NCBI GenBank assembly: GCA_020850635.1
Contig: JADZEH010000015.1
Location: 1-62,976, forward strand
DNA length: 62,976 nucleotides
DNA from: Candidatus Doudnabacteria bacterium
GTDB taxonomy: Bacteria > Patescibacteriota > Doudnabacteria > UBA920
Direction: 5' to 3'
The notes beneath the pieces were generated by a model that saw only the letters and a program-made list of their open reading frames with translations, had not been told where the DNA came from and did no database searches. The translations under genes and the position numbers were made by a program. Below are positions 119 through 57,701 of this stretch, piece by piece (the stretch's first letter is position 1; each line of letters opens with the position of its first letter).

Positions 119-140
119 GTATCGGCGTGAACACCGAACC

Positions 141-575
141 TTACTCGAGTCGGAACATTGTGGTGTAGTGCTCGAGATTTACTGGATACATCGCCGTGAA
201 CCATTGGATTCGTTCGTACGGTACGTACTTAAACGCTAGTACGAAATTATCGAGTTGGTTCATTCGTGCCGGCGCCAGTTTCTTGTCGGGACGCCTGTCG
301 TAAAAAAGGATGAGAACCTCGGTCCCATCAGCAAACTTGGCACGAGTCATCTGGACACTCACTCTGACGGGCTGGCCATCATTCACGCTTGTGGCGTTGA
401 TAAAGACTTTGTTACCGTCTGCGGTGAGAGCGATTGTACACGTCTCGGTTTCCGACAACTTGACGAAGTACTGCACGATGTTGGTACGGTAGGTCGGGGT
501 TTGAGATTCCCAGACCGGCAAATCCACAATGAATTGTGGCGTGATCATGACGCAAAGAGTGAACTCTGTGAGCAT
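141..575 (-). CDS. Hypothetical protein, 144 aa (G+C-rich cassette A)
   Basis: Longest ORF of the island. AAGGAGGG lies 5 nt upstream of the ATG. Codons are G/C-ending. No family recognised. Confidence 0.6.
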   Translation of the reverse strand: MLTEFTLCVMITPQFIVDLPVWESQTPTYRTNIVQYFVKLSETETCTIALTADGNKVFINATSVNDGQPVRVSVQMTRAKFADGTEVLILFYDRRPDKKLAPARMNQLDNFVLAFKYVPYERIQWFTAMYPVNLEHYTTMFRLE

Positions 576-610
576 GGCTGCCCTCCTTCTGGGAAGTCTC
601 TAGTGGCTCT

Positions 611-639
611 ATCCTAACGCGCCTAGAAACTTTAGTCAA
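611..639 (-). promoter_or_regulatory. Putative sigma-70-type promoter of cassette A
   Basis: Minus strand reads TTGACT (639-634), 17 nt, TAGGAT (616-611), about 35 nt upstream of the ATG. Confidence 0.4.
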
Positions 640-682
640 AGTTTAGATTTTCTTGAACAGGGGTGTTGTACAGTTTTAGGAC

Positions 683-1882
683 ATGTCAGAAAACACTGAA
701 AATGTAATTAAGCTGGTTGATGACCTATTTCAAGAAGCTTTAGTTCAAAAGGCTAGTGATATTCATATCGAACCAATGCGACGCGAGTGTTTGGTCAGAT
801 TTCGAGTTGATGGTCTGCTGTTGTCTCAAGCTAATTTACCCCTGTCTTTGCATCAGGGGATTGTGGCTCGGATAAAGATTATGGCGAATGTGCGAACAGA
901 TGAGCAGCGTCGTCCTCAAGATGGTCGAATAGATTTGTCTATGAGTGGGGTTTCGTTACGTGTCTCAACAATGCCTACGCTGTATGGAGAAAAGCTCGCC
1001 TTGCGTGTTATCAATGAGAGCCAAGTTAACTTCTCGTTGAGTGAATTAGGGTTAAGCGTGACTCATCAAAACATTATCATGCGAAATTTAGAGAAGTCGT
1101 ATGGTCTTATCGCTGTGTGCGGGCCAACTGGAAGTGGGAAAACGACAACTTTGTATAGTTTGCTGTCGCATTACAGCGGAAAAAGTTTAAATGTCTCTAC
1201 GCTAGAAGATCCAATAGAGCGAGCAGTGCATGGAGTAAACCAAACTCAAATTAATCCTAATGCGGAGTTAGGTTTTGCTTCGGGATTGCGGGCCCTGCTT
1301 CGCCAAGATCCAGATGTTCTCATGGTTGGAGAAATCCGCGATTTAGAAACCATGCGCATGGCTACCAACGCTGCGTTAACTGGCCACGTTGTTTTAACTA
1401 CACTGCATACTAACGATGCCTCATCAGCATTCACTCGATTTATTGAGATGAAAGTTGAGGAGTTTGTCGTAAGCTCAGTAGTTAATTTAATAATTGCGCA
1501 GAGGTTAGTTAGACGAGTGTGTATGGCTTGTAAGGTTGAAGCTAAATTAGATGAATCCATGCTTGCAAAGGTGAGTGCGCGGGCAGATATTTTAAATGTT
1601 TTAGAGCAAGCAGGGGTTAAGGTAGAAGAATTAAAATATCGAACTTTTCTTAGAGGTCAGGGCTGTGGGGACTGCCGCATGACAGGTTATAGTGGGCGAG
1701 TCGGAGTTTATGAATTACTAGAAATGAACCAAGAGTTGCAAAGTCTTTTGTATAACCAACGTTCAGCGTCACTAAATCTTGGAAAAGTTGGCACCAATTC
1801 TTTAATCCACGATGCAGTTACAAAAGTTTTAGACGGTACAACAACATTCTCAGAAATCATGAGAGCAATAACTTACAAGTAA
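683..1882 (+). CDS. pilB: Type IV pilus / type II secretion assembly ATPase (GspE/PilB family, short form without N-terminal domain)
   Basis: Walker A GPTGSGKTT, Asp box/Walker B DPDVLMVGEIRD, His box GHVVLTTLHTND, and a C-terminal tetracysteine motif (CMAC...GCGDC). Confidence 0.92.
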   Translation: MSENTENVIKLVDDLFQEALVQKASDIHIEPMRRECLVRFRVDGLLLSQANLPLSLHQGIVARIKIMANVRTDEQRRPQDGRIDLSMSGVSLRVSTMPTLYGEKLALRVINESQVNFSLSELGLSVTHQNIIMRNLEKSYGLIAVCGPTGSGKTTTLYSLLSHYSGKSLNVSTLEDPIERAVHGVNQTQINPNAELGFASGLRALLRQDPDVLMVGEIRDLETMRMATNAALTGHVVLTTLHTNDASSAFTRFIEMKVEEFVVSSVVNLIIAQRLVRRVCMACKVEAKLDESMLAKVSARADILNVLEQAGVKVEELKYRTFLRGQGCGDCRMTGYSGRVGVYELLEMNQELQSLLYNQRSASLNLGKVGTNSLIHDAVTKVLDGTTTFSEIMRAITYK

Positions 1883-1892
1883 CTATTTTTAC

Positions 1893-6100: not shown

Positions 6101-7355
6101 ATGTGAAGATATTCGTTACGAAACTCGAGTTGCTCTAACAGTAGTAGATGGTGACTACCCTAACGAATACCCAGATAAAGAATGTGCAATCTCTGGTTAC
6201 AAGTATTCAGATTTTAATGGTAACGGTGAAGTAGATGGAGATGACGACGGCCTTTCCGGTTGGAGAATCTACATCGACGAGAATGGTGATAATGAATACA
6301 CCGAAGGTGAACCATATGATTATACTGATTCTAATGGTTATTATTCTTTCTACAATCTAGCCGCTGGTTCTTACACAATCCGTGAAGAAAACCAGTCTGG
6401 TTGGAACAGTGTTTTCCCAACAAACGATGATGATACAAATGAATATGTAATCAACTTAGTACTCTCATCTTTTAATGGTACTGATTTCCACAACAGACCA
6501 GAAGATGAACCATGTGAAGAAGTTTCTGAAGAAGTTTCATTATTCAGCAGCTCAGACACTAACACAGCAGGTTATACAACTACAACTCTTGCAAACGACG
6601 GAGATGGCCTTAACGAATTAAACTACAGCGGTGGCGGATTGTTCACAAATGCGGTTGAACTTGTTCCTTCTCATCCAGCTTGGATTGATCCTACAACCAA
6701 TGGTTCTTTCTCAGGTTCAGGTGCAGTGTGGATCTCTACTGATACAGAACATCCAGGAGATGAGGGTGGTGAAGGCTCAGGTGATGATAACCAATGGCGT
6801 TTGTTCCAAACTGAGTTCAATGTTCCTGCAGGTGCAACTATAACCCCTGGAACTTTGTACTTCAGTGCTGACAACGCAGTCTCTGTCTACTTGAACGGTG
6901 CATTAATTGATGACACTTCTGAAGATTTGGTAACCTACGGTCCAAATGTAGCAATCCCAGAAGTCTTCAAGAAAGTGTATAGCGTTACTTTGACACCGAC
7001 TGTTGGCGATAATACATTATCATTTGTTGTACGTAACTCTAGCGTCCCTGGTATTGGTATTAATCCAACCGGTTTACTTTACAACGGTGACTTCTCATAC
7101 GTTGTAGATTGTGACAACGGTGGCGATGGTGGTAACAACGATGGCGGCGGTGATGATCGTAGCTCTGGAAGCTCTTCCAACCGTTCCGGTCGTGTCCTCG
7201 GCGATTCTACAGGTCTCCCATATGAAGCCCCAGGAAAAATCCTTGGTGCAACTACATTACCTCGAACAGGTAACTCAGTTGAACTCTACACCTTGCTCGC
7301 CTTTATGGCAGTCCTTATGGCAACCCCATTACTCAGCCGAAAAACAGCTAAGTAA
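3189..7355 (+). CDS. Giant secreted multidomain surface protein (1388 aa) with C-terminal LPXTG-type sorting signal
   Basis: N-terminal signal peptide. Two SdrD-B/Cna-B-like modules (ISGMKFNDLNGNGLKDEGETGLAGWDIY; ISGYKYSDFNGNGEVDGDDDGLSGWRIY). A DUF642/CBM-like segment and acidic linkers. The C-terminus is LPRTG, then a hydrophobic helix, then RKTAK. SD is GAGGGAAAAAGGA. Confidence 0.9.
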   Translation: MNTVSSIWRKRAAQPVLSVFFGLVLVLQTAVPITALAQDAPETDSAPQEQTQEENKDQGEQQRSIFNPKVKICHKEGPKDGYGPYHEIEISPVAVLFPHVLLHGDIYPVPENGCPGKLTLIKEVVGGQGQGSAGLWTLYADGEGDDNDFSGTTPVSGTAEVGVYTLSESGPEGYTASDWVCVIASDDEEEDEDDDKKASVISAPMDGNTVTVGEGQDITCTITNTFIEEVPNDLLLESICSDDPATIRAWTVTNPTDSDINFDWSLNDDDQTGSGTAPANGSTTIITNTQGGNTLEITWYEGDSLQDASLESTGLLCPKDNQPCGTELIANGGFEVPAINLSWDIVDNNTPGLGWFVQWMPSVPVAAPIPASVEFHRGVNGWQPQEGYQHAELDGDWGGPSSGQSGEDGSTKIYQHLPTVAGNDYTISFWTSPRPGIADNKVQFSWDGVIKDTIVENGSANGQTVWSQHTYTFEAMDSMTTIEFADLSVGDSLGSFIDNVSVKEECPPPCEPGPSWATSVVDYDQGLRKDGSPITNPDRTDPAKALNAADWVPGTGTNFYALGFGGTIELSFTGYVINTDGDDLSIHEATNGTYPNETVSIEVSQDGSSWFPLSEVGTNTSPAGVTYVDFDETGLDWIKYVRLTDTSIASAFPNDADGFDLDAVDATLEACTPPVDPCNLEQDVPSKGLLATVVDFIQEVTIPQDDDEECISTISGMKFNDLNGNGLKDEGETGLAGWDIYAYNGIPSSNITVDSSDITGSDTNWVAPGEYVVMARGTWNNGGTQYFDTEFHTANTWSTHEDGVVPYGEDIGDIVINDTQFVDWGVYNDQNENGFEHYYFYILNHPGGNINYSVFDGESGVKNAGWYGDNTGSINVQMYKLLDTAVTDANGNYELEFNTDEPVTAVVREFQQNGWVQTSPNADTGVYALNGLIEGVNYPITGNWNLIFEAGSRDVTGKDFGNHFVGQEDEECEDIRYETRVALTVVDGDYPNEYPDKECAISGYKYSDFNGNGEVDGDDDGLSGWRIYIDENGDNEYTEGEPYDYTDSNGYYSFYNLAAGSYTIREENQSGWNSVFPTNDDDTNEYVINLVLSSFNGTDFHNRPEDEPCEEVSEEVSLFSSSDTNTAGYTTTTLANDGDGLNELNYSGGGLFTNAVELVPSHPAWIDPTTNGSFSGSGAVWISTDTEHPGDEGGEGSGDDNQWRLFQTEFNVPAGATITPGTLYFSADNAVSVYLNGALIDDTSEDLVTYGPNVAIPEVFKKVYSVTLTPTVGDNTLSFVVRNSSVPGIGINPTGLLYNGDFSYVVDCDNGGDGGNNDGGGDDRSSGSSSNRSGRVLGDSTGLPYEAPGKILGATTLPRTGNSVELYTLLAFMAVLMATPLLSRKTAK

Positions 7356-7997: not shown

Positions 7998-8005
7998 ATA
8001 CTATA

Positions 8006-8033
8006 AAACCGCCTCCCCGAAGGGAGGCGGTTT
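8006..8033 (+). terminator. Intrinsic terminator
   Basis: AAACCGCCTCCC-cgaa-GGGAGGCGGTTT. Confidence 0.75.
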
Positions 8034-8040
8034 AGATCTT

Positions 8041-8197
8041 ACCCGGTGACAAACTTAGTAAGCCGCGCTTTGACTTTTCTATATTAAGATATAGAAAAGT
8101 CTCTGTCAAGCTGGTGCGTCCGGGTGGTGGACCCGAGGGGAGTCGAACCCCCAAGACCGCGATGTCAAAGCGCGGCTTGTCACCAGACCGGGCCCAC
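8041..8197. repeat. Nested inverted-repeat locus enclosing the tRNA-like element
   Basis: 8041-8074 is an inverted, indel-bearing copy of 8164-8192. A perfect 13-bp palindrome, GACTTTTCTATAT-TAAG-ATATAGAAAAGTC, lies at 8072-8101. Confidence 0.7.
8125..8195 (-). ncRNA. tRNA-like RNA (acceptor stem, T arm and CCA are canonical; D arm and anticodon arm are aberrant; no isotype assignable)
   Basis: Acceptor GGGCCCG/CGGGTCC, T arm GGGGG-TTCGACT-CCCCT, discriminator A, encoded CCA. Only 36 nt lie between the acceptor and the T arm. The best central helix closes a 9-nt loop. Confidence 0.5.
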
Positions 8198-8239
8198 TCA
8201 GATTAATGTACATGAAGTGTGTTCAAGAAATTCTAAAAT

Positions 8240-8266
8240 AAAACCGCCTCTGAGTTAGGCGGTTTT
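8240..8266 (-). terminator. Intrinsic terminator of the thiol-redox operon
   Basis: AAAACCGCCT-ctgagtt-AGGCGGTTTT. Confidence 0.7.
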
Positions 8267-8278
8267 ATGATATATAAC

Positions 8279-9309: not shown

Positions 9310-10023
9310 TTATTCTAGTACTCCTCGTTCAATGCTGGTGAAGTCGTAGAATTCAAGAATTTTGGCTTGGATTAAGACATCATACTGAAAGTACATCGCT
9401 ATCGCGGAAAGGATAATCAGAACTCCAAAAATTTGTTGGATGAGTGTAGTGTATTTGGCAATGGCGCGAATTCGTGTGGTGATAAATTGGCCACCGTAAG
9501 CAACGATGAGCATTGGGATACCAGCACCAACAGCGTAAGCAATGAGGAGAATTCCTGCACGAGCTAAATCACTTTGGCTAATAACTAAAGTGAGGATGGA
9601 GCCAAGGACTGGACCAGCGCAAGGGGTCCAAATAATCCCGAGCATCATGCCGAGAATAAACCCACCACCGTTGCCCTTACCGGCTGTTGTTCCAAGCACG
9701 CTAGCTTTGTTGATGTATTTACTCAGATGTACAGTAAGTTTTTGAAATGGTGCAGGCCAGACCATAAAGATACCGAATATACCTAAACCGTAAATAGCGA
9801 TGCGTCGTAAGGCATCCGGAGCAACGTGGAGCTGGGTTGTAAGGAACGACAAGAACATCGCCACCAATGCGAAGGTCAAGATGAACCCGAGGGTAATAAA
9901 TAAGGGTCTGGTGTGGCTTTTTCGGCCAACTGATGCTCCAAGTAAAATAGGGAGCAGGGGAAGGATGCACGGTGCTCCAATAGTTAGGATTCCGGCAATG
10001 ATTGCTAAGGCAATTTCAAGCAT
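9310..10023 (-). CDS. ccdA: Cytochrome c biogenesis/DsbD-family transmembrane electron transporter CcdA
   Basis: Six TM segments with the two conserved Cys motifs GAPCILPLLP and WTPCAGPVLG. Confidence 0.85.
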   Translation of the reverse strand: MLEIALAIIAGILTIGAPCILPLLPILLGASVGRKSHTRPLFITLGFILTFALVAMFLSFLTTQLHVAPDALRRIAIYGLGIFGIFMVWPAPFQKLTVHLSKYINKASVLGTTAGKGNGGGFILGMMLGIIWTPCAGPVLGSILTLVISQSDLARAGILLIAYAVGAGIPMLIVAYGGQFITTRIRAIAKYTTLIQQIFGVLIILSAIAMYFQYDVLIQAKILEFYDFTSIERGVLE

Positions 10024-12147: not shown

Positions 12148-12174
12148 TTAGCACTCTGCTTGACAGAGTGCTAA
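12148..12174 (+). promoter_or_regulatory. CIRCE operator (HrcA binding site) of the hrcA-grpE-dnaK operon
   Basis: TTAGCACTC-TGCTTGACA-GAGTGCTAA is a perfect match to the consensus TTAGCACTC-N9-GAGTGCTAA. Confidence 0.9.
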
Positions 12175-13527: not shown

Positions 13528-15426
13528 ATGAGTAAAATTATTGGAATCGACCTCGGTACTTCAAACAGTGCCGCCAGTGTTATGGAAGGTGGAAAGCCGG
13601 TTATCATCCCGGCAGCTGAAGGCGCCTCTTTGGGTGGTAAAGCCTTTCCATCATATGTCGCGTTTACAAAAGAAGGTGAACTGTTAGTTGGTGAGCCAGC
13701 GCGTCGTCAGGCCGTCACTAATCCAGAAGGCACTATTTTTGAAGCCAAACGCAAAATGGGTACTAAGTTTAAGTACACCGTTAACGGTAAAGACTACGCC
13801 CCAGAGCAAATCAGTGCCTTTATTCTACAAAAGATTAAAAAGGATGCAGAAAGTTACTTAGGTGACAAAGTAGAAAAGGCAGTTATTACTGTCCCTGCAT
13901 ATTTTGATGATGCACAGCGCCAAGCCACAAAGCATGCTGGTGAAATCGCTGGCCTTGAAGTTGTCCGCGTTATCAACGAACCTACTGCCGCTGCGTTCGC
14001 TTACGGTTTAGACAAGTCTGGTGCCAAAGACCAAAAGATTTTAGTGTTTGACCTTGGTGGTGGTACCCTCGACGTTACCATCATGGACTTCGGTGAAGTC
14101 GATGGGCAAGCCACATTCGAAGTACTTGCTACTTCTGGTGATACTTCTCTTGGTGGTAAGGATATGGACCAAGCTTTGATTGATAACATCACCAAAACGT
14201 TTAAAGATGAAAGTGGGATTGATGTTACTGCTGACAAAATGGCTATGAACCGTGTTCGTGAAGCTGCTGAAAAAGCCAAGATTGAACTTTCAACTACGCT
14301 TGAAACTGAATTGAACTTACCGTTCATTACTGCTGATGCTTCTGGTCCAAAACATTTGCAAATGAAGATTACTCGAGCCAAGCTTGAAGATCTTGTTAAA
14401 CCAATTGTTGACCGTATGCGTAAGCCAGTTGAACAGGCGATTACAGACGCTAAACTCACTCCACAGCAAATCGAAAAGATTATTATGATCGGTGGTCCAA
14501 CTCGTATGCCCGTTGTCACCAAGTTCGTTGAAGACTACGTCGGTAAGCAAATTGAACGTGGTGTTGACCCGATGGAAGCTGTGGCTAAAGGTGCGGCTAT
14601 CCAAGCTGGAGTTATGTCTGGTGATGTTCAGGGTAAAGAAATCTTGCTTCTCGATGTTACACCACTTACCTTAGGTCTAGAAACCTTAGGTGGGGTTCGT
14701 ACACCAATTATTGATCGTAACACAACCGTTCCAACCTCAAAGAGTCAGGTCTTTTCTACCGCTGCTGATAATCAAACTTCTGTAGAAATTCATATCTTAC
14801 AGGGTGAACGTGAATTTGCTAGCGACAACAAAGATCTTGGCCGCTTTATTCTCGATGGTATTCCACCAGCACCACGAGGCGTTCCTCAAGTTGAAGTCAC
14901 TTTTGACATTGATGCTAACGGTATCTTAACTGTTAAAGCTAAAGACAAAGCTACGAACAAAGAACAGCACATTACGATTCAGGGTTCATCTTCTTTGTCT
15001 AAAGAAGAAGTTGAAACGATGAAAAAGCAAGCTGAAGAACATGCATCTGAAGATCGTAAGCGTCGCGAAACTGTTGATGTCCGTAATCAAGCCGACACCT
15101 TGTTAGCTGTCTCTGAAAAAACTTTGAAAGACGCTGGTGATAAAGCTAAGGCTGAAGACAAAGCTGAAGTGGAAGCCAAGATGCAGGCTTTGAAAGACAT
15201 CAAAGATAAAGATGATGTTGAGCCAATCAAAAAAGCGATTGATGAACTATCTGCAGCTATTCAAAAAGTTGGTGCGTCTATGTACGAAGGTCAGCAAGGC
15301 GCCGCACCAGCAGGGGATGCAGCTCAGGGTGCAGAAGCTACTTCTGGTGAAGAAAAACCAGTAGATGCTGAATATACTGAAGTTAAGGACGAAGGAGCAG
15401 AAGCTCCAAAAGAAGAAGGGAAATAA
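13528..15426 (+). CDS. dnaK: Molecular chaperone DnaK (Hsp70)
   Basis: [19 protein letters not shown] and the full Hsp70 architecture. SD is AAGGAG. Confidence 0.98.
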
Positions 15427-15470
15427 AAAAAGTAGAGCAGACGGCGCGCTTCTCAGCGGGCTATCTGCTC
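15424..15470 (-). terminator. Intrinsic terminator of cassette B (minus strand)
   Basis: GAGCAGA (15435-15441) / TCTGCTC (15464-15470) closes a G+C-rich hairpin, followed on the minus strand by a T-run (15424-15431). Confidence 0.5.
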
Positions 15471-15655
15471 GATTGGTAGCCTAGTCAGGGCTAATGTTTG
15501 TGTGTGGATGTCACACTGCGTAAGTGGGATCTACCCACCCCTCCTTTCCTCTAGTAGTGAGGGTAACACCCAGGCGTATCAGAGGGCGATTATATCTGCT
15601 GCCTGCGCCGACTGACACAACAAGCCCCACCTCCTTTCAGGCCTGACCGTAGCAG

Positions 15656-15874
15656 TCACTGACCGCAGGGATTGCGACGATCGCGATCCCCAGAGCGAGC
15701 TGCAGGATTCTCATCCTGCGTCGCAGTGCTTTCTTCAGTCGTGACATCTTCATGACCGTAGCCCTCCGTGGTGATGGGGAACACGAATGCTCCACTTTGA
15801 ATAACTTCCCGAATTGGCGTTCTCCGAGCGCGCATCGGGAGCGTGCTATCTGATTTCTGGTAATCTTTTGACAC
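15656..15874 (-). CDS. Hypothetical small protein, about 72 aa (G+C-rich cassette B)
   Basis: GTG start with AGGAGA 5 nt upstream. The ORF track's longer version starts in A+T-rich DNA without an SD. Confidence 0.4.
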   Translation of the reverse strand: MSKDYQKSDSTLPMRARRTPIREVIQSGAFVFPITTEGYGHEDVTTEESTATQDENPAARSGDRDRRNPCGQ

Positions 15875-15938
15875 GGCTCTCTCCTGTCGAGCAGAATCGA
15901 TCAAAATAACACCCTTAGTATAAATTAAATTGAACAAT

Positions 15939-17429: not shown

Positions 17430-17500
17430 AGCCGGAGTAGTGTCGTTAAGAAAACCATCGGAGCAAAGCGACTGGTTTTAGTACAACACCACTCCGGCTT
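17430..17500 (+). repeat. Structured intergenic repeat, copy 1 (gene-3'-end hairpin element)
   Basis: Core GTTAAGAAAACCATCGGAGCAAAGCGACTGGTTTTAGTACAAC lies inside the outer stem GCCGGAGTAGTGT/ACACCACTCCGGC. Also found at 31000-31064 (-) and 60859-60926 (+). Confidence 0.8.
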
Positions 17501-24415: not shown

Positions 24416-24449
24416 AAAAAATGTGGGAGCCGAGACGTTCCGGCTCCAC
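24416..24449 (-). terminator. Intrinsic terminator of cassette C
   Basis: Minus strand reads GTGGAGCCGG-aacgtct-CGGCTCCCAC then ATTTTTT. It abuts the trhO start codon. Confidence 0.7.
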
Positions 24450-24453
24450 TGTA

Positions 24454-24747
24454 CTACGCACCTGCGGCCATCGCTTTGGCAATGGGCTTTTCGATTCCTC
24501 CTTTGGGCAGGAAGACCGTGATCATACCGCTGTCCTCGTCGAATTCGACGGTGTAGCGATCATAATAGTGTTTTACAACGGCTTCCCGCACGCTCGGATA
24601 GCTGAGTGATACCAGAAGTGCGTAGGCGCCCACTTCCTCACCGTTATCGTCGAGCATAGCGTCGATCGATCTGATGCACCTTTGGATTTTGCTGTTCTCC
24701 AGCTCCGGGTCGAGTCTCGGAGCACCGTCATCGTGATTCGTGTTCAT
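24454..24747 (-). CDS. Hypothetical acidic protein, 97 aa (G+C-rich cassette C)
   Basis: GGAGGA lies 3 nt upstream of the ATG. Has its own promoter and terminator. No family recognised. Confidence 0.6.
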   Translation of the reverse strand: MNTNHDDGAPRLDPELENSKIQRCIRSIDAMLDDNGEEVGAYALLVSLSYPSVREAVVKHYYDRYTVEFDEDSGMITVFLPKGGIEKPIAKAMAAGA

Positions 24748-24782
24748 GAGTCCTCCAACGCCGTCTGGATTCTATCAGGGTA

Positions 24783-24810
24783 ATCATAGCAGGCAGTGAT
24801 TCGCTGTCAA
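24783..24810 (-). promoter_or_regulatory. Putative promoter of cassette C
   Basis: Minus strand reads TTGACA (24810-24805), 16 nt, TATGAT (24788-24783). Confidence 0.5.
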
Positions 24811-25014: not shown

Positions 25015-25166
25015 AAACAGTTTCCATCAATTCATTGGTGGAAACTGTTTTAATTAGACTATAATTCTTTACAACTTGCTTGCGTTAAATATATAATCTT
25101 ACTGAATTCGGGTTGCTTTAAATAGTTGGAGCGACCCCGATGGAATCTCGACAGGAGGATTTACGA

Positions 25167-25460
25167 ATGTCCAGTACATCCAATGTCTACGAATACTTTC
25201 AGGGGGAAGTTATCAGATACGATGCCATGTGCGGCAACGGATCAATTCAGCTGGATGACGGAGGCGGGGTGGTTTCGTTTCATCTTGGGTATTACAGCAG
25301 TGGTCGACCTTCTCGTCCTCCCACTGTTCGCGAACGAGTCAGCGTCAAATGTCGTCGCAGGTCTACCGGTGTTTTGGTTGCTGTCGATGTGACTCGGACA
25401 GGTGGCCCTCTCAAGCCAAAGCGACAACCTCGTCGCGCGATGAACAGTGTGTCGAAGTAG
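25167..25460 (+). CDS. Cold-shock-domain-like OB-fold protein with basic tail, 97 aa (G+C-rich cassette D)
   Basis: AGGAGGA lies 7 nt upstream of the ATG. GEVIRYDAMCGNGSIQLDDGGGVVSFHL...RVSVKC...GVLVAVDV follows CSD spacing but lacks the RNP1/RNP2 aromatics. Confidence 0.55.
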   Translation: MSSTSNVYEYFQGEVIRYDAMCGNGSIQLDDGGGVVSFHLGYYSSGRPSRPPTVRERVSVKCRRRSTGVLVAVDVTRTGGPLKPKRQPRRAMNSVSK

Positions 25461-25576
25461 TGTTATTCTCGTCGCCGTGTCTAGTAAAGGATTACTCACT
25501 ATGGGGGTGGTTAATCCTTTTTATTTTGTCCATTTATGGTATCATAACTAAAAGGACAGTAACTTTTGAAACAAAA

Positions 25577-32145: not shown

Positions 32146-32172
32146 AGAGTTAGTATAGCGAAGTTAGGGTAT

Positions 32173-32215
32173 AAAAAAAAGTTCCCGGAGCCGCGCTGTT
32201 TTGCGCGGCTCCGGG
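32173..32215 (-). terminator. Intrinsic terminator of cassette E
   Basis: Minus strand reads CCCGGAGCCGCGC-aaaaca-GCGCGGCTCCGGG followed by AACTTTTTTTT. Confidence 0.8.
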
Positions 32216-32222
32216 GGTTGGA

Positions 32223-32585
32223 TCAGGTGGAAGCGGTTGTCGCCTCTGAGTTGAGAAGGATGATGTCCTCGCTCATCGCATATCTCTCAATCACGACCTG
32301 GCATGAGACTTTGAACTCCCGGCACGTTTCTTCGATGATCGTCCCGATCCTCTCCGCCGCAGTTCCTAACGGGGTTGTCTTCCCAACCACGACTTCGAAC
32401 AGAATGTCGACATCATATGGACCCATGCTTGCTCTGCTGTCGACGGAGATCGTGTTCGTGAAAGGCTTTTCACCTAGGCCTTCGAAAATTCTGCCCGCCT
32501 CAATGGCGTCGCAGACTTGCTTGAGGACCGTGGTGGCAGTCAAGCTGTACTTGACGCCCCGCTGTGTCAGCAGGATCTTGATCAT
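32223..32585 (-). CDS. Hypothetical protein, 120 aa (G+C-rich cassette E; distant Asp23/Gls24-like pattern)
   Basis: AGGAGAA lies 4 nt upstream of the ATG at 32585. The track's longer form starts at the TTG of the -35 box. The segment DVDILFEVVVGKTTPLGTAAERIGTIIEETCREFKVSCQVVIE resembles the Asp23 core. Confidence 0.55.
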   Translation of the reverse strand: MIKILLTQRGVKYSLTATTVLKQVCDAIEAGRIFEGLGEKPFTNTISVDSRASMGPYDVDILFEVVVGKTTPLGTAAERIGTIIEETCREFKVSCQVVIERYAMSEDIILLNSEATTAST

Positions 32586-32634
32586 TGTCTTCTCCTGTCC
32601 GTCTAAGATGTTGTCCCACAAGTGGGAACTCACT

Positions 32635-32663
32635 ATAATACTTCTTTTTGACTCCTCGGTCAA
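32635..32663 (-). promoter_or_regulatory. Putative promoter of cassette E
   Basis: Minus strand reads TTGACC, 17 nt, TATTAT. Confidence 0.5.
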
Positions 32664-33074: not shown

Positions 33075-33081
33075 CTCTAAC

Positions 33082-33115
33082 AAAAAGCCTTACTCCAATG
33101 AGTAAGGCTTTTTGT
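33082..33115. terminator. Bidirectional intrinsic terminator
   Basis: AAAAGCCTTACT-ccaatg-AGTAAGGCTTTT. Confidence 0.75.
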
Positions 33116-33123
33116 TTCTATGA

Positions 33124-42885: not shown

Positions 42886-45537
42886 ATGAATAATGAGAAC
42901 TTACAAACCAGAACCACCAACGCTTTATCGGAATTAGGTGAAAAAATCTTTTTAGACCGCTATGCCATTAAGGATGCCAAGAAAGAGACCCTAGCTATCG
43001 GGGATAAGGTTGTGGTTTGTGTGAATTTAAAAACTGGCCAACGTGAAATTGGTAGCTTAACAGAAATTGATGAAGCCGAGAAAAAAGTTACAGTTCAGCT
43101 TCGCGATGGTACTTCAGAGGTTCATGCCATCGAACATGTCGACAAGCCTTTAGAGACTGTGCCTGAACAAATGTTTGAACGTATCGCTCGTCATATCGCG
43201 AGCGTGGAAAAAACTTCTGAGCTCCAGCAGGAATGGGAAGGGAAGTTTCGTCGGTTAATGGACGATTGGCAGTACGTTCCCGCTGGTCGTATCTTTACTG
43301 GTGCTGGAACCGGACAGAATCTAACTTTTTATAATTGTTACGTTATTCCAAATCCAAAAGATAGCCGTGGTGGTATTTTTGAAACTCTAAGCCAGATGGC
43401 CGAGATTATGTCTCGTGGTGGTGGTGTTGGTATTAATGTCTCGACGCTTCGTCCACGCTACGCTTACGTTAAAGGTGTGAATGGTCGCAGCTCTGGTGCG
43501 GTGTCTTGGGCATCTTTGTACAGTTTCGTTACTGGTTTAATCGAGCAAGGTGGTAGCCGCCGTGGTGCTTTGATGCTGATTTTAAATGCCTGGCACCCTG
43601 ATGTTTTAGATTTTATTAATTCCAAGCGTGAAGCCGGTCGGATTACTAACGCTAATATTTCCGTTGGTATTACCGATGATTTTATGGCGGCAGTTAAAGC
43701 CGATGCCGATTGGGATTTAATCTTCCCTGATCCAGCTGATCCGATGTATTCCGAAAAGTGGGATGGTAACATGACGACTTGGAAAAAACTCGGTGGTAAA
43801 GTTATCAAGCACAAAACCGTTAAAGCCAAAGAGATTTGGAACAGCATTATTGAATCAGCCTGGACTTCCGCTGAACCAGGAATGTATTTTATCGATCGCG
43901 CGAATCATTATTCTAATTCTTGGTATTACGCCGATTTACCATGTACCAATCCTTGCGGTGAACAGCCACTTCCAGCCTGGGGAGTGTGTAACCTTGGTCA
44001 CGTTAACTTAGCCAAGCACTTAATTGCGGATCAAAAAGAAGTTGACTGGAACAAACTTAAAACTACAGTGCAGTACGCCGTTCGTTTTCAGGATAACGTT
44101 ATAGACGCAACCCCATACTTCTTTGATGAGAACTATAAACAGCAAATGTCTGAACGCCGTGTTGGTATGGGAACCATTGGACTTGCGGAAATGCTTATTC
44201 GTTTAGGTTTGCGTTACGGTAGCCCTGAAGCTGTGTCATTTATCGACAAACTCTATCAGTTCATCGCGGTGACATCTTACGAAACAAGTATTGAGTTAGC
44301 TCGCGAAAAAGGTGCGTTCGCTCAATTCGATGCCGAAAAGTTTTTACAAAGCGGTTACATGAAGAACATGCCGAACTATATTCGCGATTTAGTCGCAAAG
44401 TATGGGATTCGCAATGTCACGATTATGACTCAAGCGCCAACTGGAACGATTGGCACCATGGTTGGAACCTCAACCGGTATTGAACCGTTCTTCTCGTGGA
44501 CATACTTTAGAAAATCTCGTTTAGGCGTCCATGAAGAGAAAATAAAGATTGCTCAAGAATGGCTTGATGCAAATCCTGGTCAAGAACTTCCAGAATACTT
44601 TGTGACAGCCATGTCACTTACTCCGGAAGAGCATGTTCGCGTGCAAGCTGCAGTTCAACGCTGGACTGATTCGGCAATTTCCAAAACGGTTAACGCTCCA
44701 GAAAATTACACGATTGAACAAACTGCCAAACTCTATGAGATGATGTACGAACTTGGTTGTAAGGGCGGGACGATTTATCGTGATGGTAGTCGTGATGAAC
44801 AGATTCTTGCTACCGACAGTAAGAAGCTTGGAAAAGATGTTCAAGAACAAATGACCGCGATGGCCGAAGCTAAGCAAGTTCAGGTTAGTGAACAAGCTCC
44901 AGAGGTTATGTCTGTTAGTGGTGGCAATATTCAATTCAAAATTATTGCCCGTGAACGTCCACAAGTCATGCATGGCTCCACTTACAAATTGAACACCGCT
45001 TACGGTCATTTGTATGTCACGATCAATGAAGATGAGCATGGTCCATTTGAAGTCTTTGCTTCCTTGGGTAAAGCTGGTGGATTCTTCTCAGCCCAAACAG
45101 AAGCGATTACACGTATGATTAGCTTGGCTCTTCGTTCGAACATTGCGATTGAAGAAGTTTTAAGCCAACTCAAAGGAATTCGTGGTCCAGATGTCTCGTT
45201 TGCTGATGGAGAAGTTATTCATTCCTTACCAGACGCCATCGGAAAAGTTTTAGAAAAGCATTTAAAGCGTGGTGAACAGCAATTACAACTCCCACGAACC
45301 AAACAAGAAGAAAAAGCAGCTGCTGCAGCGATGGATTACGAAGGTGAAGGTGTGGCTGAAAAAGTTATAGTTGCCACTGTTGCTGAAACTTCTGATGGAA
45401 TGTTTCAAAAGAAAGCTTCAAAGTTATCCATTGCCAATTTAGGAAGTGCTCCAGTGTGCCCTTCCTGTTCCAACATGTTGATCATGGCTGAAGGCTGTAT
45501 GAACTGTCCCGCTTGTGGTTACTCGAAATGTGGCTAA
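42886..45537 (+). CDS. nrdJ: Adenosylcobalamin-dependent (class II) ribonucleotide reductase
   Basis: Single long chain with the TNPCGEQ active-site loop and a C-terminal Cys-rich tail (CPSC...CMNCPACGYSKCG). Confidence 0.9.
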   Translation: MNNENLQTRTTNALSELGEKIFLDRYAIKDAKKETLAIGDKVVVCVNLKTGQREIGSLTEIDEAEKKVTVQLRDGTSEVHAIEHVDKPLETVPEQMFERIARHIASVEKTSELQQEWEGKFRRLMDDWQYVPAGRIFTGAGTGQNLTFYNCYVIPNPKDSRGGIFETLSQMAEIMSRGGGVGINVSTLRPRYAYVKGVNGRSSGAVSWASLYSFVTGLIEQGGSRRGALMLILNAWHPDVLDFINSKREAGRITNANISVGITDDFMAAVKADADWDLIFPDPADPMYSEKWDGNMTTWKKLGGKVIKHKTVKAKEIWNSIIESAWTSAEPGMYFIDRANHYSNSWYYADLPCTNPCGEQPLPAWGVCNLGHVNLAKHLIADQKEVDWNKLKTTVQYAVRFQDNVIDATPYFFDENYKQQMSERRVGMGTIGLAEMLIRLGLRYGSPEAVSFIDKLYQFIAVTSYETSIELAREKGAFAQFDAEKFLQSGYMKNMPNYIRDLVAKYGIRNVTIMTQAPTGTIGTMVGTSTGIEPFFSWTYFRKSRLGVHEEKIKIAQEWLDANPGQELPEYFVTAMSLTPEEHVRVQAAVQRWTDSAISKTVNAPENYTIEQTAKLYEMMYELGCKGGTIYRDGSRDEQILATDSKKLGKDVQEQMTAMAEAKQVQVSEQAPEVMSVSGGNIQFKIIARERPQVMHGSTYKLNTAYGHLYVTINEDEHGPFEVFASLGKAGGFFSAQTEAITRMISLALRSNIAIEEVLSQLKGIRGPDVSFADGEVIHSLPDAIGKVLEKHLKRGEQQLQLPRTKQEEKAAAAAMDYEGEGVAEKVIVATVAETSDGMFQKKASKLSIANLGSAPVCPSCSNMLIMAEGCMNCPACGYSKCG

Positions 45538-45603: not shown

Positions 45604-45643
45604 AAAAAAATCCGCGAGGAGAGCTGGGTTGCTCTCCGCGCGG
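45604..45643 (-). terminator. Intrinsic terminator of cassette F
   Basis: Minus strand reads CCGCGCGGAGAGC-aaccca-GCTCTCCTCGCGG followed by ATTTTTTT. Confidence 0.8.
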
Positions 45644-45667
45644 GGGTGCGTCGCTTGGCCCTTGGAG

Positions 45668-45943
45668 TTAGGCCTTTTCTTTGACTACACGCTTGGTGGT
45701 GATTCCGAAGCGCTTGTCGCCGCATCGGATCATGACGGGAACGACTTCGTTGTTGATTTTAACTCGTTTTGTGAATGACGTGTCTTTGTTGATCCCTGAG
45801 TTGGGAACGAAGAAGACCAGAAAAGCTTCTCCAGAGGGCTTGCTGACCTCAAGGCTAGACGGGCCCTTGTAACCGTTCCTGATCCTTGTTTCGAGTTCTC
45901 CTCGACGTCTTCGAAGCATTTCTGCGAGTTCTTCACTTTTCAT
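45668..45943 (-). CDS. Hypothetical basic protein, 91 aa (cassette F, distal gene)
   Basis: ATG preceded by GGAGGTGA. Overlaps the upstream ORF by 11 nt. G/C-ending codons. Confidence 0.6.
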   Translation of the reverse strand: MKSEELAEMLRRRRGELETRIRNGYKGPSSLEVSKPSGEAFLVFFVPNSGINKDTSFTKRVKINNEVVPVMIRCGDKRFGITTKRVVKEKA

Positions 45944-46277
45944 GAGTCATCACCTCCGCTGGTCCAGTGAAAACCTCGGCCAATTCCTTGCTCTGGGTCT
46001 CGTAGAACGTGACCAGAGCCCGATTGATCTCGGTCAAGCTGGGTACGAGATCATCTCCTGGCATCGAAAGCCAGCACTTTTCAATCTGCCGGTTGATGAT
46101 CTTGATGAGGTCGTTGTCCGCTCCGAGGTCGATGAGGTCGTAGATCATCTCGTGAACTTTCTTGACCTGTTCCTTGATTGTTTCAGTGCTCGGTACACCG
46201 CGCGCAAGAATATGCGCGGTTTGTCGTGTGAACTCATTGAGCTTGCCGAGCATCTCAATCTTTTCTCTGTCGTCCAT
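45933..46277 (-). CDS. Hypothetical helical acidic protein, 114 aa (cassette F, proximal gene)
   Basis: AAGGAGG lies 7 nt upstream of the ATG. G/C-ending codons. No family recognised. Confidence 0.6.
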   Translation of the reverse strand: MDDREKIEMLGKLNEFTRQTAHILARGVPSTETIKEQVKKVHEMIYDLIDLGADNDLIKIINRQIEKCWLSMPGDDLVPSLTEINRALVTFYETQSKELAEVFTGPAEVMTHEK

Positions 46278-46360
46278 GTTCTGGCCTCCTTGTGGCTCCC
46301 GCGAGCTGTGATTTTATCCCTAAGGATAGTATACTATAATTGAAATTTTAAGATTTGTCC

Positions 46361-46972
46361 ATGCCTTACAAGAAGAAAACAACAGATGCGGTCATTCCCA
46401 AAAAAGGATTAGTCATTTGTCACATTGGTGATGGCAAAGGCAAAACAACCGCGGCCATGGGTCTAGCCGCCCGTGCCAGTGGTGCTGGTTTAAACGTTTA
46501 CATTTTACAGTTTGTTAAAGCCAAGAAAAAAGAGACAAGGGAGCCTGGCGAATGGCCACTTTCAAACGAGATAGAGTTTTTCAATGATGTAAAAATTCCT
46601 AAAGGCATGGGTCAAATTGTAACAGAACAAGTAGGCCAAGGTTTTGTGGGTATTTTAGGTGATCGTAAACAGCGTGACGCACATCAACGTGAAGCTTTGA
46701 ATGGTTTAGAGATGGCGCGAAATATTTTACTTAAAAACGAATACCAAGTTGTCATTTTAGACGAGATCCTTTCAGCGGTTGAATTAAATTTGCTTAATGA
46801 GCAAGACATCCTCGACCTCATTGCGATCAAACCCGAGATGATCCACTTAGTTATCACTGGTCATGAAAAGCGCAAAGCTATTGTGAAAGCGTGCGACTTA
46901 GTTACTGAGATGAAGTTAGTGAAGCACCCTTACTACGATGGCGTTCTTGCACAGAGGGGGATTGATTTTTAA
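46361..46972 (+). CDS. cobO: ATP:cob(I)alamin adenosyltransferase (CobA/CobO/BtuR family)
   Basis: P-loop GDGKGKTTAAMG and VILDEI. ATG at 46361; a TTG at 46355 is an alternative start. Confidence 0.85.
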   Translation: MPYKKKTTDAVIPKKGLVICHIGDGKGKTTAAMGLAARASGAGLNVYILQFVKAKKKETREPGEWPLSNEIEFFNDVKIPKGMGQIVTEQVGQGFVGILGDRKQRDAHQREALNGLEMARNILLKNEYQVVILDEILSAVELNLLNEQDILDLIAIKPEMIHLVITGHEKRKAIVKACDLVTEMKLVKHPYYDGVLAQRGIDF

Positions 46973-47419: not shown

Positions 47420-47551
47420 ATGGAAGAGCGGTATCGAAGGGTAGTTCAGGGGGTACGCCGAGTTACGACGGTAGAAGTCATCAAAATCGTGGTGTACGTG
47501 GCTTTGATAGGCACCCTACTGCTGTGGATCTGCCTGCCGGAGCACTGGTAG
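47420..47551 (+). CDS. Tiny membrane peptide, 43 aa (cassette G, first ORF)
   Basis: GGGGAGGA lies 7 nt upstream of the ATG. Arg-rich N-terminus followed by one TM helix. Below the ORF-track cutoff. Confidence 0.45.
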   Translation: MEERYRRVVQGVRRVTTVEVIKIVVYVALIGTLLLWICLPEHW

Positions 47552-47576
47552 GCATCTGCTGGCAAGGGAGGATTAC

Positions 47577-47789
47577 GTGAAGAAGAATGAGGAAGTGTTG
47601 ACTTTGGGACTCAGAGTCCTTTTGGCGTTCATCGTCGTGATGTGGGTCCTGCTCATGTTCAAGAGCTGTTCTCACCCAAGTGGGCGGATGCCCAGCACGT
47701 TTCTGGTCGTTTCTGCGATCAACAGCCGGCCAGTGGTTACTCAACCACTGGCCGTATTTATTTGCGTAAACCATCGAAATATGATATAA
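47577..47789 (+). CDS. Small membrane protein, 70 aa (cassette G, second ORF)
   Basis: GTG start with AAGGGAGGA upstream. One TM helix (LRVLLAFIVVMWVLLMF). Confidence 0.45.
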   Translation: MKKNEEVLTLGLRVLLAFIVVMWVLLMFKSCSHPSGRMPSTFLVVSAINSRPVVTQPLAVFICVNHRNMI

Positions 47790-56297: not shown

Positions 56298-56305
56298 ACC
56301 GCCAG

Positions 56306-57043
56306 TTAGGCGGTTTTTTTGAACTCTAGTAAGAGGAGTAGAGGGTAGCGGTAAAGTTGGTACTGGAGATTAAACTTAGGGCTATCTGTGTCAGATCGAA
56401 TTTCCACAAAGTTAGTTAGAGCAAAGTTGTTTTTTGTGACTGAGTTAATGTGATCTTCAAGGCTGTAATAGCGCGAAGTCGGAGTACTGGCATTCCAACT
56501 TGGCAACAGCTCTTGTGAGTTATATGGGAGCGGTCGTAAAAATAGTTGAGGTTTACGAAATAGTAATCTATCTATTAGAGAGCGTTTCCAAATCCCAAAC
56601 GGGTACGTGTTCATCGGATTAGGAATTGTTACAAGTAGTTGCCCGTTTGGCTTTAGAACCGTTTCGAGATTTTTGTAAGCTTCTTCTAGTTTAGATAAAT
56701 CGGTAGCAGCCATATTGAGAATTATCGTGTTGAAAGATTCGGGAGTGTATGGTAGCGGACTTTGAAGGTTTGCAACCGAAAATTTTACATTTGGATATTG
56801 TACTTTAGCGTGTTCTATAAGAGTTACTGCGCTGTCGCACCCTTCAATGAACGGATATTTTTCACTGAGTTTTTTGGTTAACCAGCCTGAACCACAAGCC
56901 GCGTCTAAAATTTTCAGGTCATTGTTCTTTTCTAATTTTTGTTCTAGAGCTTTAGACAAAACATCTTGTTGAATTTGGCCATTTTCAGAGTTCAGGAAAT
57001 GTAAGTATTCGGCTGTGGTTTGCTTGTCGTTGTAAGGATTCAT
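56306..57043 (-). CDS. Class I SAM-dependent methyltransferase
   Basis: Motif I ILDAACGSGWLT. Confidence 0.8.
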   Translation of the reverse strand: MNPYNDKQTTAEYLHFLNSENGQIQQDVLSKALEQKLEKNNDLKILDAACGSGWLTKKLSEKYPFIEGCDSAVTLIEHAKVQYPNVKFSVANLQSPLPYTPESFNTIILNMAATDLSKLEEAYKNLETVLKPNGQLLVTIPNPMNTYPFGIWKRSLIDRLLFRKPQLFLRPLPYNSQELLPSWNASTPTSRYYSLEDHINSVTKNNFALTNFVEIRSDTDSPKFNLQYQLYRYPLLLLLEFKKTA

Positions 57044-57083
57044 AGCTGGATTATACCAGATTCGCCAATCTTTAAATATGCGC

Positions 57084-57112
57084 TTGCATCTTGTAATTTT
57101 CAGGCGTACGAT
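57084..57112 (+). promoter_or_regulatory. Putative promoter of cassette H
   Basis: TTGCAT, 17 nt, TACGAT. Confidence 0.4.
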
Positions 57113-57154
57113 TTAGTTAAGTTCGGTGTCCCAATCTCGCGGAGGAGGTGAGTC

Positions 57155-57676
57155 ATGACAGGTCTTAAACTTTGGATGCTCTTGCTATTCCTCCATGGCA
57201 CAAATGGAGTTGAATACTACGTCAAGAATGATGGGGAACAGGAAGTCAAGATTTTCTTCAAAGACTTTTCTCTGTTGCCCGAAGGAATTATGCATGAAGG
57301 TATCTCGTTCTCCGATATCATCAGAGCAAATCGGTTTGGCCCTAAGTGGCTTGATCAGACAGAGCATAGTGAGCTGTTTGTCGAAATTTGTAGAGAACTT
57401 GAGGGCGAGAGCATTACCAGCCTACGTCTCGATCATTGCGCTACCAATTCGGTAACTCTCCGGGTTATTCCTTCTTTCGACGGAGAAGAAGACAGTCCGC
57501 AAATGGAGCGGTATCTCAATGACCTCTCGCTAAGAGTTATTCGAGTGGTCGAGACGCATTTTAAGATAAAGTGTAGTCCCACGACAGAAGAGGACGAAAA
57601 GTGGTTTAGTGATGAACTTCTGCCCCCTGCGCCTGTGCTGCCTCCCGAGGGATGGCAGCCTTTTTTATTGTCTTGA
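57155..57676 (+). CDS. Hypothetical protein, 173 aa (G+C-rich cassette H)
   Basis: GGAGGAGGTGA lies 4 nt upstream of the ATG. Possible signal-like N-terminus MTGLKLWMLLLFLHGTNG. No family recognised. Confidence 0.6.
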   Translation: MTGLKLWMLLLFLHGTNGVEYYVKNDGEQEVKIFFKDFSLLPEGIMHEGISFSDIIRANRFGPKWLDQTEHSELFVEICRELEGESITSLRLDHCATNSVTLRVIPSFDGEEDSPQMERYLNDLSLRVIRVVETHFKIKCSPTTEEDEKWFSDELLPPAPVLPPEGWQPFLLS

Positions 57677-57701
57677 CATCGCCCGCCATCTTCCATAAAA
57701 T
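57673..57701 (+). promoter_or_regulatory. groESL promoter
   Basis: TTGACA (57673-57678), 17 nt, TAAAAT (57696-57701). The TGA stop of cassette H (57674-57676) lies inside the -35 hexamer. Confidence 0.65.

Follow-up and report, generated by a model that had tools for sequence, protein, structure and literature searches.

The G+C-rich islands of a Doudnabacteria contig

The window analysed here, the whole stretch of 62,976 bp, is an entire contig of a Candidatus Doudnabacteria genome with a G+C content of 42.5 %, and by its DnaK, HisS and TopA proteins it falls among Patescibacteria metagenome-assembled genomes labelled Candidatus Doudnabacteria or, loosely, 'Saccharibacteria'. Wedged between its housekeeping genes are eight short G+C-rich islands, A to H, which carry ten small orphan open reading frames (ORFs), referred to here as cassettes. 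Their layout is as follows (GC3 is the G+C fraction at third codon positions; SD, Shine-Dalgarno sequence).

A, 141..575, minus strand: orphan ORF of 144 aa, GC3 0.63, with the SD aaggaggg 6 nt upstream and, at 88-113, a terminator hairpin with a T-run after it; the slot reads LOG-family gene (beyond the contig edge), A, pilB.
B, 15427..15929, minus strand: G+C-rich spacer of 503 nt between dnaK and DUF3467-dnaJ (54.5 % over 15427-15905); its ORF at 15637-15753 (minus strand) encodes a basic and hydrophobic peptide of 38 aa (B38) and has an SD; a hairpin at 15435-15470, with its T-run on the minus strand, lies ~200 nt downstream of the B38 ORF.
C, 24426..24810, minus strand: acidic orphan of 97 aa (24454-24747), GC3 0.65, between trhO and tRNA-Lys; promoter-like TTGACA-16-TATGAT at 24783-24810, terminator at 24426-24447.
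D, 25025..25536, plus strand: directly 3' of tRNA-Lys; basic ORF of 97 aa at 25167-25460 with an AGGAGG SD, promoter-like site at 25068-25097, terminator at 25486-25520; weak codon periodicity (GC3 0.49).
E, 32184..32663, minus strand: orphan of 120 aa (32223-32585), GC3 ~0.69; promoter-like site at 32635-32663, 13-bp G+C terminator at 32184-32215.
F, 45612..46361, minus strand: bicistronic, between nrdJ and cobO; F2 (45933-46277), 114 aa, acidic and predicted helical, and F1 (45668-45943), 91 aa, basic; one promoter-like site at 46333-46361 and one terminator at 45612-45641.
G, 47420..47789, plus strand: two small membrane peptides between DUF167 and hisS, G1 (47420-47551, 43 aa) and G2 (47577-47789, 70 aa, GTG start).
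H, 57155..57676, plus strand: acidic orphan of 173 aa with a hydrophobic N-terminus, GC3 0.48; the slot reads methyltransferase, H, CIRCE operator (57706-57732) of groES-groEL.

When each island is set against all windows of the same length outside the islands, seven of the eight lie at or beyond the extreme of the background (z 2.9-4.5, with at most 0.13 % of background windows that high); their G+C contents are 49.6 % (A), 54.5 % (B), 53.4 % (C), 50.4 % (D), 51.5 % (E), 51.7 % (F) and 50.9 % (G). Island H, at 46.2 %, is marginal (z 1.6, with 4.7 % of background windows as high), so that the sharp compositional switches described by an earlier sequence-only reading stand for A to G and are weak for H. 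The codon usage follows the same division. Core GC3 in the window is 0.377 +/- 0.052 with a maximum of 0.51 (54 core ORFs), and the remaining cassettes reach.55 (F1),.67 (F2),.71 (G1) and.62 (G2) beside the values listed above; the foreign dialect that had been claimed for all of them is borne out in the pooled figures, while D and H taken singly are only weakly deviant from the core.

The pooled G+C fractions at first, second and third codon positions (GC1, GC2, GC3) are.547/.390/.603 in the cassettes (977 codons) and.533/.372/.373 in the core, which means that GC1 and GC2 are native-like and the shift in composition is almost purely synonymous. Nor is it a uniform move towards G+C: the cassettes use a distinct dialect, in which CTC and CTG make up.60 of leucine codons (core.20) and TTA.02 (core.30), AGR and CGR make up.76 of arginine codons (core.36), and CGC, although it ends in C, drops from.27 in the core to.12. 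Arginine is also raised relative to lysine. Relative synonymous codon usage (RSCU) in the cassettes correlates with that of their own core at r = -0.22, with that of arbitrary bacteria of 58-70 % G+C at 0.5-0.63, and with that of a Doudnabacteria locus of 52 % G+C at 0.27. Since the intergenic DNA of the window has a total G+C content of 38 %, with 30-40 % in most spacers that are not near cassettes, the mutational drift of the genome is not G+C-ward, and a G+C-ward mutation bias is ruled out as the cause of the dialect. Across thousands of gut species the G+C content and synonymous GC3 of orphan genes track genome values almost one for one, and those orphans that match viral sequences have a lower G+C content (PMC11293555). 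The G+C-rich direction seen here is therefore atypical, because prokaryotic orphans normally match their genome and phage-like ones fall below it (PMC11293555).

By sequence, every cassette is an independent expression unit, in which an SD precedes one or two short ORFs and a hairpin terminator follows them; four also have a promoter-like site. A GGAGG-type SD lies 5-9 nt upstream of all ten starts, as had been reported from the letters alone, and the G+C-rich hairpins with T-runs described for B, C, E and F were found there (3' of F1 in the case of F) and also at A and D. The -35/-10 pairs claimed for A, C, E and H fared less well: promoter-like sites scoring 10-11 of 12 occur upstream of C and E, and also of D and F2, with A and H not among the four, and the number of such sites in the sequence is not above that in shuffles. 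The overall anatomy held up, with corrections to the starts of D (likely 25167), E (annotated at 32585) and G1 (best placed at 47420, giving 43 aa). In island B, only the 38-aa ORF was found within ~500 nt of G+C-rich sequence, less than had been supposed. F2 and F1 overlap by 11 nt at the F2 stop and F1 start and carry net charges of -7 and +9, and B38, G1 and G2 each contain one hydrophobic helix (maximum 19-residue hydropathy 1.98, 2.48 and 2.61).

It might be asked whether such ORFs are artefacts of chimeric metagenome assembly, chance readings of G+C-rich non-coding DNA, or unannotated structured RNAs. G+C-rich DNA does give long chance ORFs on both strands, among them a 161-aa antisense call over C and tRNA-Lys in the related neighbourhood L214 and a 97-aa antisense ORF in G; D lacks clear codon periodicity, B is mostly non-coding, and the D and E junctions have been seen in one assembly only. 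Against this, the junctions of A, F and G are reproduced in independent samples and assemblers, and the exact C protein occurs on two contigs: L228, an independent Logan contig, matches the window at 100 % over the A junctions, and L220, from a different run and 97.8 % identical overall, carries F and G with identical proteins. Diverged copies of the cassettes occur in at least five other genomes, and A, C, D, E, F1, F2 and H are annotated in NCBI nr (G1 and G2 have no annotation in the public record). The cassette ORFs show GC1 > GC2 < GC3 periodicity, which is weak in D; reading frame and length are kept in the orthologues of F1, F2, G2 and H; and the ratio of nonsynonymous to synonymous divergence (dN/dS) is below 1 in each case, at 0.22 for F1, 0.37 for F2 and 0.47 for G2 against the neighbourhood L205, and at 0.31 for H between L205 and L209. 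An SD stands at every start. At its gathering threshold Rfam recovers only four tRNAs over the window, the cassettes have no match even at E <= 1, and folding z-scores of the cassettes, -0.9 to -3.3 against -0.8 +/- 1.2 in controls, are no lower than their terminator hairpins alone explain, so structured RNAs were rejected as the identity of the cassettes. Artefact is thus a very improbable account, and most cassettes are genuine protein-coding genes under purifying selection.

What happens to the slots in related genomes

The neighbourhoods used for comparison span a range of distances. L220 belongs to the same species; L222 has a HisS 98 % identical to that of the window; L205 and L214 lie on one 415-kb contig (HisS 96 %, TopA 97 %); L209, L001 and L125 stand at 95 %, L211 and L216 at 84-87 %, L215 at 85 % (TopA), L212 at 74 % (HisS) and L045 and L128 at 60 % (HisS). 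Sister genomes are those whose core proteins are 95-98 % identical to those of the window.

Diverged orthologues of C, F1, F2, G1, G2 and H occupy the same slots in sister species at protein identities of 40-74 %, and weaker homologues extend to genomes with 74-85 % core identity. The C orthologue in L214 has 97 aa, ~74 % identity, GC3 0.61 and no more than background nucleotide divergence; in L215 a 98-aa gene (GC3 0.65) is likely a distant relative, recognised by eye and without a similarity score, and the C-type genes of the window, L214 and L215 all stand beside tRNA-Lys. G1 and G2 recur in L205, L209, L211 and L222 at 38-66 % identity, the L211 match to G2 being a fragment of 21 residues only, and the C-terminus of G2 is conserved as RPVVTQPLAVFIC(A/V)NH. 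The H orthologues in L205 and L209 are 52-53 % identical to H and 44 % to each other, with a proportion of synonymous differences (pS) of 0.69-0.79, which is saturated. The B slot is occupied in L001 by a sequence of the same length and G+C content in which the SD, the ATG and the first residues are kept (MKMSRLKK and MRLKK) and the interior is unalignable. For A, pilB-based scans of genomes and metagenomes gave only distant relatives, apart from the identical contig L228, and E found only itself among 5.8 billion proteins (word-indexed search) and 1.84 billion representative proteins (full HMMER search). At the far end, the relative at 60 % (L045 and L128) is without C, D, F, G and H.

Homologues of the cassettes were thus found only in genus-level relatives, as is expected of ORFans (genes without homologues outside a lineage; the global protein search was made with E). 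Most of the cassettes are shared, syntenic and old at the level of the genus and do not represent eight recent acquisitions, and yet they are not core genes, being missing or replaced in more distant relatives. The sequence-only reading had named syntenic conservation across the whole lineage as the sign of old core genes; that conservation is seen at genus level and breaks down beyond it.

Other slots keep their flanks and change their content. F is 100 % identical in L220; in L205 the two proteins are 52 % (F1) and 40 % (F2) identical with saturated synonymous divergence (dS); in L222 the slot is a mosaic of an F2-like gene, a ribbon-helix-helix (RHH) gene of the HicB family and an F1-like gene; L209 has one unrelated gene of 100 aa and L211 four genes; and L212, which lacks the slot, has a relative of F1 nearby. 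The interval between nrdJ and cobO thus holds one, two, three or four genes depending on the genome. Between ftsZ and nrdR the window is empty, and L205, L209 and L211 carry three mutually unrelated GC3-rich cassettes, each with an SD, an ORF and a terminator and with right junctions no more than 2 nt apart, at TGTGGATAAGC. The intervals between der and pth and between tRNA-Lys and ndh differ in content between the window and L214: the D segment (25025-25536) has no counterpart there, and the E segment (32160-33124, ~965 nt) is absent, pth and der abutting. The absence of D and E from a sister genome, together with relatives whose slots hold unrelated cassettes or none, bears out the variable accessory layer that the sequence-only reading had proposed. 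The E segment also holds g32766-33074, a paralogue of native composition of g26875-27177; both encode ~100 aa and share a similar N-terminal transmembrane segment.

The slot genes of L205, L209, L211 and L212 are likewise GC3-rich, mostly.50-.72 at genome G+C contents of 38-48 %, with the exception of L211 Fa (.46). In a uniform screen, the window and its near relatives had ~10 times as many small GC3-rich ORFs per kb as ~30 more distant loci, themselves Doudnabacteria-like, and 23 of the 26 such ORFs flagged in related loci were singletons.

Several observations were made in passing at or near these slots. The orientation of the tRNA-Lys at 24939-25014 with respect to the genes around it is reversed in L214 and L215, and not in L216, a pattern that points to a small local inversion or re-insertion of the tRNA gene and to a rearranged site. 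A tRNA-targeted integrative island was considered for C and D and rejected, there being no repeat of the tRNA 3' end in 24850-25650 and no integrase. In L209 the G2 orthologue (~9626-9832) has an in-frame stop and is a possible pseudogene, consistent with ongoing decay and turnover of cassettes. Accessory genes of native composition are mobile as well: a 152-aa gene at 31144-31602, between pth and dprA, is absent from that place in L214 and matches a segment of L216 that includes an annotated NUDIX gene; L205 has a NUDIX gene (14087-14602) between ndk and relA, where L220 has an extra M23 peptidase (6604-7299). Past the left edge of the window by ~1.2 kb, L228 encodes an 80-aa orphan (1955-2197, GC3 0.60) after the LOG-family gene, and so the series of G+C-rich mini-genes extends outside the window.

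Further features lie away from the cassettes or beside them. Two CIRCE inverted repeats (HrcA operators) occur, at 12148-12174 upstream of the cluster of g12168-12974 and dnaK, and at 57706-57732 upstream of groES-groEL. A G+C-rich spacer of 281 nt at 7998-8278 was considered as a further protein cassette and set aside; it is probably the 3' domain of ssrA (transfer-messenger RNA, tmRNA), with a tRNA-like 3' end ...GGTTCGACTCCCC...CCACCA at 8105-8195 (minus strand) and a sub-threshold Rfam tmRNA match there (28.5 bits, E 1.2e-7; ARAGORN made no tmRNA call). An intergenic repeat of ~60 nt, GTTAAGAAAACCATCGGAGCrrAGCGACTGGTTTTAGTACAACAC, with an AAAACCA/TGGTTTT hairpin, stands at 17440-17499 (plus strand) and 30999-31066 (minus strand) and at three places in L214, with one stretch of 52 nt 100 % identical.

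Tempo, proposed recombination and possible origins of the dialect

Between the window and L205, core genes are mostly 87-99 % identical at the amino acid level, with dS mostly 0.45-0.95 and nonsynonymous divergence (dN) 0.01-0.05. Over the same comparison F1, F2 and H are 52 %, 40 % and 53 % identical, with dN 0.41-0.56 and pS 0.65-0.79, at or near saturation; the cassette proteins evolve 10-20 times faster than those of the core. GC3 remains high in the orthologues of F1, F2 and H despite their saturated synonymous sites. Because the bias is kept in saturated orthologues, and in C across three genomes, it is not the un-ameliorated trace of a recent entry.

These data bear directly on the account given by the sequence-only reading, namely that each of the eight islands is an independent and recent insertion of tiny genes whose donor, such as a host bacterium or its phages, had a higher G+C content, and whose composition has not yet been ameliorated. 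The dialect does lean that way, in that it is unlike the core, close to bacteria of 58-70 % G+C and less so to the Doudnabacteria locus of 52 %, and arginine rises relative to lysine; L214 lacks D and E, and E is a singleton. The same slots in sister genomes are nevertheless filled by orthologues of C, F1, F2, G1, G2 and H, and the B slot is occupied too, some of these in genomes at 74-85 % core identity; the synonymous sites of F1, F2 and H are saturated with high GC3 in both lineages, a signal neither young nor decaying; GC1 and GC2 are not raised as a donor of 55 % G+C predicts; and donor sequence was not found in searches of proteins (E), viral contigs (A, C, E and H), phages (A, F1 and H) or plasmids (A, C and F2). 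Repeated recent acquisition is thus unlikely, and as a general account it is already refuted by the syntenic orthologues.

The flanks of the slots are also disturbed. Genes next to cassettes have raised dS (cobO 1.19, methyltransferase 1.35, g55380 2.25), and GroES is only 75 % identical. The trees of F1 and F2 conflict with each other and with that of the core: L222 is the closest relative of the window by HisS (98 %) and by CobO, yet its F1 is 79 % identical to that of L205 and 52 % to that of the window, while its F2, unlike its F1, is closer to that of the window. Ongoing hypermutation is not indicated, because the cassettes are stable within the species (identical in L220), and a diversity-generating retroelement target was rejected, there being no repeats within or between cassettes and F1, F2, G1 and G2 being identical in L220. 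As a whole, the patterns would be better accounted for by allelic replacement, with recombination between diverged lineages, than by divergence in place alone.

Two neighbouring genes were noted in this connection. The trhO gene (23498-24415), which abuts C, is 95-97 % identical to L214 at the nucleotide level against a background of 80-88 % on either side, and the block has the appearance of a tract recently recombined between species. The nrdJ gene (42886-45537), for class II ribonucleotide reductase, exists as two ~50 %-identical xenologues that are discordant with the core phylogeny, one shared by the window, L209 and L222 (98-99 %) and the other by L205 and L211 (91 %), which suggests that an essential gene has been swapped between lineages beside cassette F.

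We consider it fairly probable that the islands represent a genus-restricted pool of small accessory genes with fast turnover, housed in recombination hot slots between conserved housekeeping operons. Across sister genomes the slots show saturated orthologues, allelic mosaics, unrelated replacements and presence or absence. DNA would be taken up and recombined by homology in the conserved flanking genes, and the content of the slot would turn over with it; ComEC, DprA and a PilB ATPase are encoded in the window. Since homologous recombination in the flanks would suffice, it would be understandable that integrases, attachment sites and target duplications were not seen. The dialect of G/C-ending codons would then be a property of the circulating pool, perhaps fed from a richer-G+C source, and not a fading mark of entry. 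Its cause may be either repeated draw from a G+C-richer pool or a bias maintained in place: the correlation with generic bacteria of 58-70 % G+C (r up to 0.63) above that with the Doudnabacteria locus (0.27) speaks for an outside pool, and the native-like GC1 and GC2 for maintenance in place.

A different possibility, to which we give limited credence, is that the cassettes are native, vertically inherited, fast-evolving genes of the lineage whose G/C-ending codons are kept up without any outside source, either because selection acts on the mRNA or its translation, or through gene conversion biased to G+C at hot spots of recombination. GC1 and GC2 equal those of the core and GC3 alone is shifted, orthologue GC3 is stationary and high after saturation, C shows background divergence with GC3.61-.65 in three genomes, signs of frequent recombination surround the slots, and the low G+C content of intergenic DNA makes the bias other than mutational. 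Such a view is hard to square with unrelated cassettes in one slot of different genomes, with varying presence and absence and with discordant gene trees; one codon that ends in C, CGC, is lowered in the dialect, the terminator hairpins by themselves account for about all of the extra RNA structure, and a GC3 shift of 23 points is far larger than the known effects of biased gene conversion in bacteria.

Several points weigh against the pool of exchangeable genes that we favour. No recombination event has been caught at a mapped breakpoint within a flank, and the raised divergence of the flanks could come from long-lived balanced polymorphism. C is only background-diverged from L214 and looks vertically inherited, yet keeps a GC3 of 0.61-0.65, which a pure import model fails to explain, and the GC1 and GC2 of the cassettes are native-like. 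The searches of protein, viral, phage and plasmid sequences revealed no donor or mobile carrier. The comparison across several genomes concerns cassettes other than A, D and E, and the coding signal of D is weak. The proteins of the window show no match to toxin, antitoxin or defence profiles, and the F1 model, with a predicted local distance difference test score (pLDDT) of 81, has no fold match.

Likeness to known systems, possible functions and meaning

None of the ten cassette proteins could be placed in a known family, as the sequence-only reading had also found: Pfam, PHROG and PADLOC profiles gave no match above noise for any of the ten, and NCBIfam profiles none for the seven tested (A, C, D, E, F1, F2 and H). 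Its suggestion that the cassettes are parts of one dispersed function finds no support in their sequences, as paralogy or a common element was rejected for want of any DNA or six-frame similarity, and no shared repeats beyond chance 10-20-mers were found. In agreement with it, no mobility genes, flanking direct repeats or shared attC-like repeats were found at the cassettes, and no integrase or transposase occurs among the Pfam-annotated neighbours in relatives. A resemblance of D to a degenerate cold-shock domain, read by eye, was dropped after BLASTP gave no alignment to E. coli CspA and PDB and Pfam gave no match; profile matches of F2 to designed helical or TIM proteins proved compositional, and PDB profile searches with F1 and F2 returned nothing meaningful. 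The F1 model has one helix and five strands, with no PDB fold match (best E 0.67), and the single-sequence model of H, of low quality (pLDDT 59), likewise matches no known fold.

Among known categories, the nearest is that of hot spots of horizontal gene transfer, also termed genomic islets or replacement flexible islands, populated by ORFans. Such hot spots are said, in work attributed to Oliveira, Touchon and Rocha in 2017, to lie between the same pair of core genes with strain-specific accessory content, often without mobility genes. The likeness here is close, with fixed core flanks around an orthologue, an unrelated gene or nothing, without an integrase, and with signs of recombination in and around the flanks; the same flanks with different content are found between ftsZ and nrdR, nrdJ and cobO, der and pth, and tRNA-Lys and ndh. 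Unlike multi-gene islands, the units here are single genes of 0.4-0.7 kb, they are dense (~10 in 63 kb and an eleventh just past the contig edge), and they are G+C-richer than the genome, where transferred genes are usually A+T-richer. As ORFans they are typical in being short, without homologues, fast-evolving, poorer in host-preferred codons and under weak purifying selection, and they differ in a GC3 that stands 23 points over the core, an excess common to the orphans of a genus. What sets the cassettes apart is therefore their grain of single genes, their density and a G+C-rich synonymous bias that persists.

Integron cassettes offer another parallel, since they too are single small ORFs without function by annotation, foreign in composition and rapid in turnover. 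The units here are dispersed over 57 kb, not arrayed, with promoter-like sites of their own (C, D, E and F), and neither attC-like repeats nor IntI was found in the cassette comparison or among the Pfam-annotated neighbours of relatives.

Toxin-antitoxin modules provide the remaining comparison. A coupled acidic and basic pair with an RHH gene is how a type II toxin-antitoxin, or an addiction module like it, usually appears, and F is a small, tightly coupled and overlapping bicistronic operon of an acidic and a basic protein, patchy and mosaic in distribution, with an RHH gene inserted in relatives (the middle gene of L222 matches Pfam HicB at 27.7 bits against a cutoff of 21, and L211 Fa does so weakly). 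The F of the window differs from HicAB-like systems in having no RHH gene and no profile match, neither toxin, antitoxin nor defence, for F1 or F2; recognisable DNA-binding or toxin domains were not found in the pair, and the F1 model has no known toxin fold. A toxin-antitoxin-like role for F is thus weakly suggested. B38 and G1, under 45 aa, and G2, at 70 aa, resemble type I toxins in their single hydrophobic helices and, being small membrane peptides, are weakly suggested to be of that kind, with the differences that G2 is above the usual size of under ~60 aa and that no antisense RNA is evident. H may be exported, and the cassette between ftsZ and nrdR in L205 has an apparent signal peptide. 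That the cassettes are modules of conflict, addiction or the envelope is a view we hold weakly.

Genomes of the candidate phyla radiation (CPR, or Patescibacteria) are small and usually described as streamlined and static, and most of their lineage-specific small proteins are uncharacterised. A bolder proposal, which we regard as decidedly unlikely, is that this CPR genus has a hitherto undescribed way of holding many single-gene cassettes at defined landing sites in intergenic DNA, exchanged without a recognisable recombinase and with G/C-ending codons that are actively maintained and not inherited from a donor. Were that true, ~10 cassettes per 63 kb would extrapolate to roughly a tenth of the genes, and the system would be a recombinase-free functional analogue of the integron, tied to a local regime of composition that biased conversion or selection keeps up. 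In any case, a bias that is G+C-richer, outlasts synonymous saturation and leaves the amino acids native-like runs contrary to the usual picture of orphans and transferred genes as A+T-rich or matched to the genome, and the question of an import pool or a maintained bias becomes testable with existing metagenomes. GC3 excess and slot position together offer a handle on an accessory layer that evolves fast and whose probable role in these epibionts lies in conflict or in interaction with hosts.

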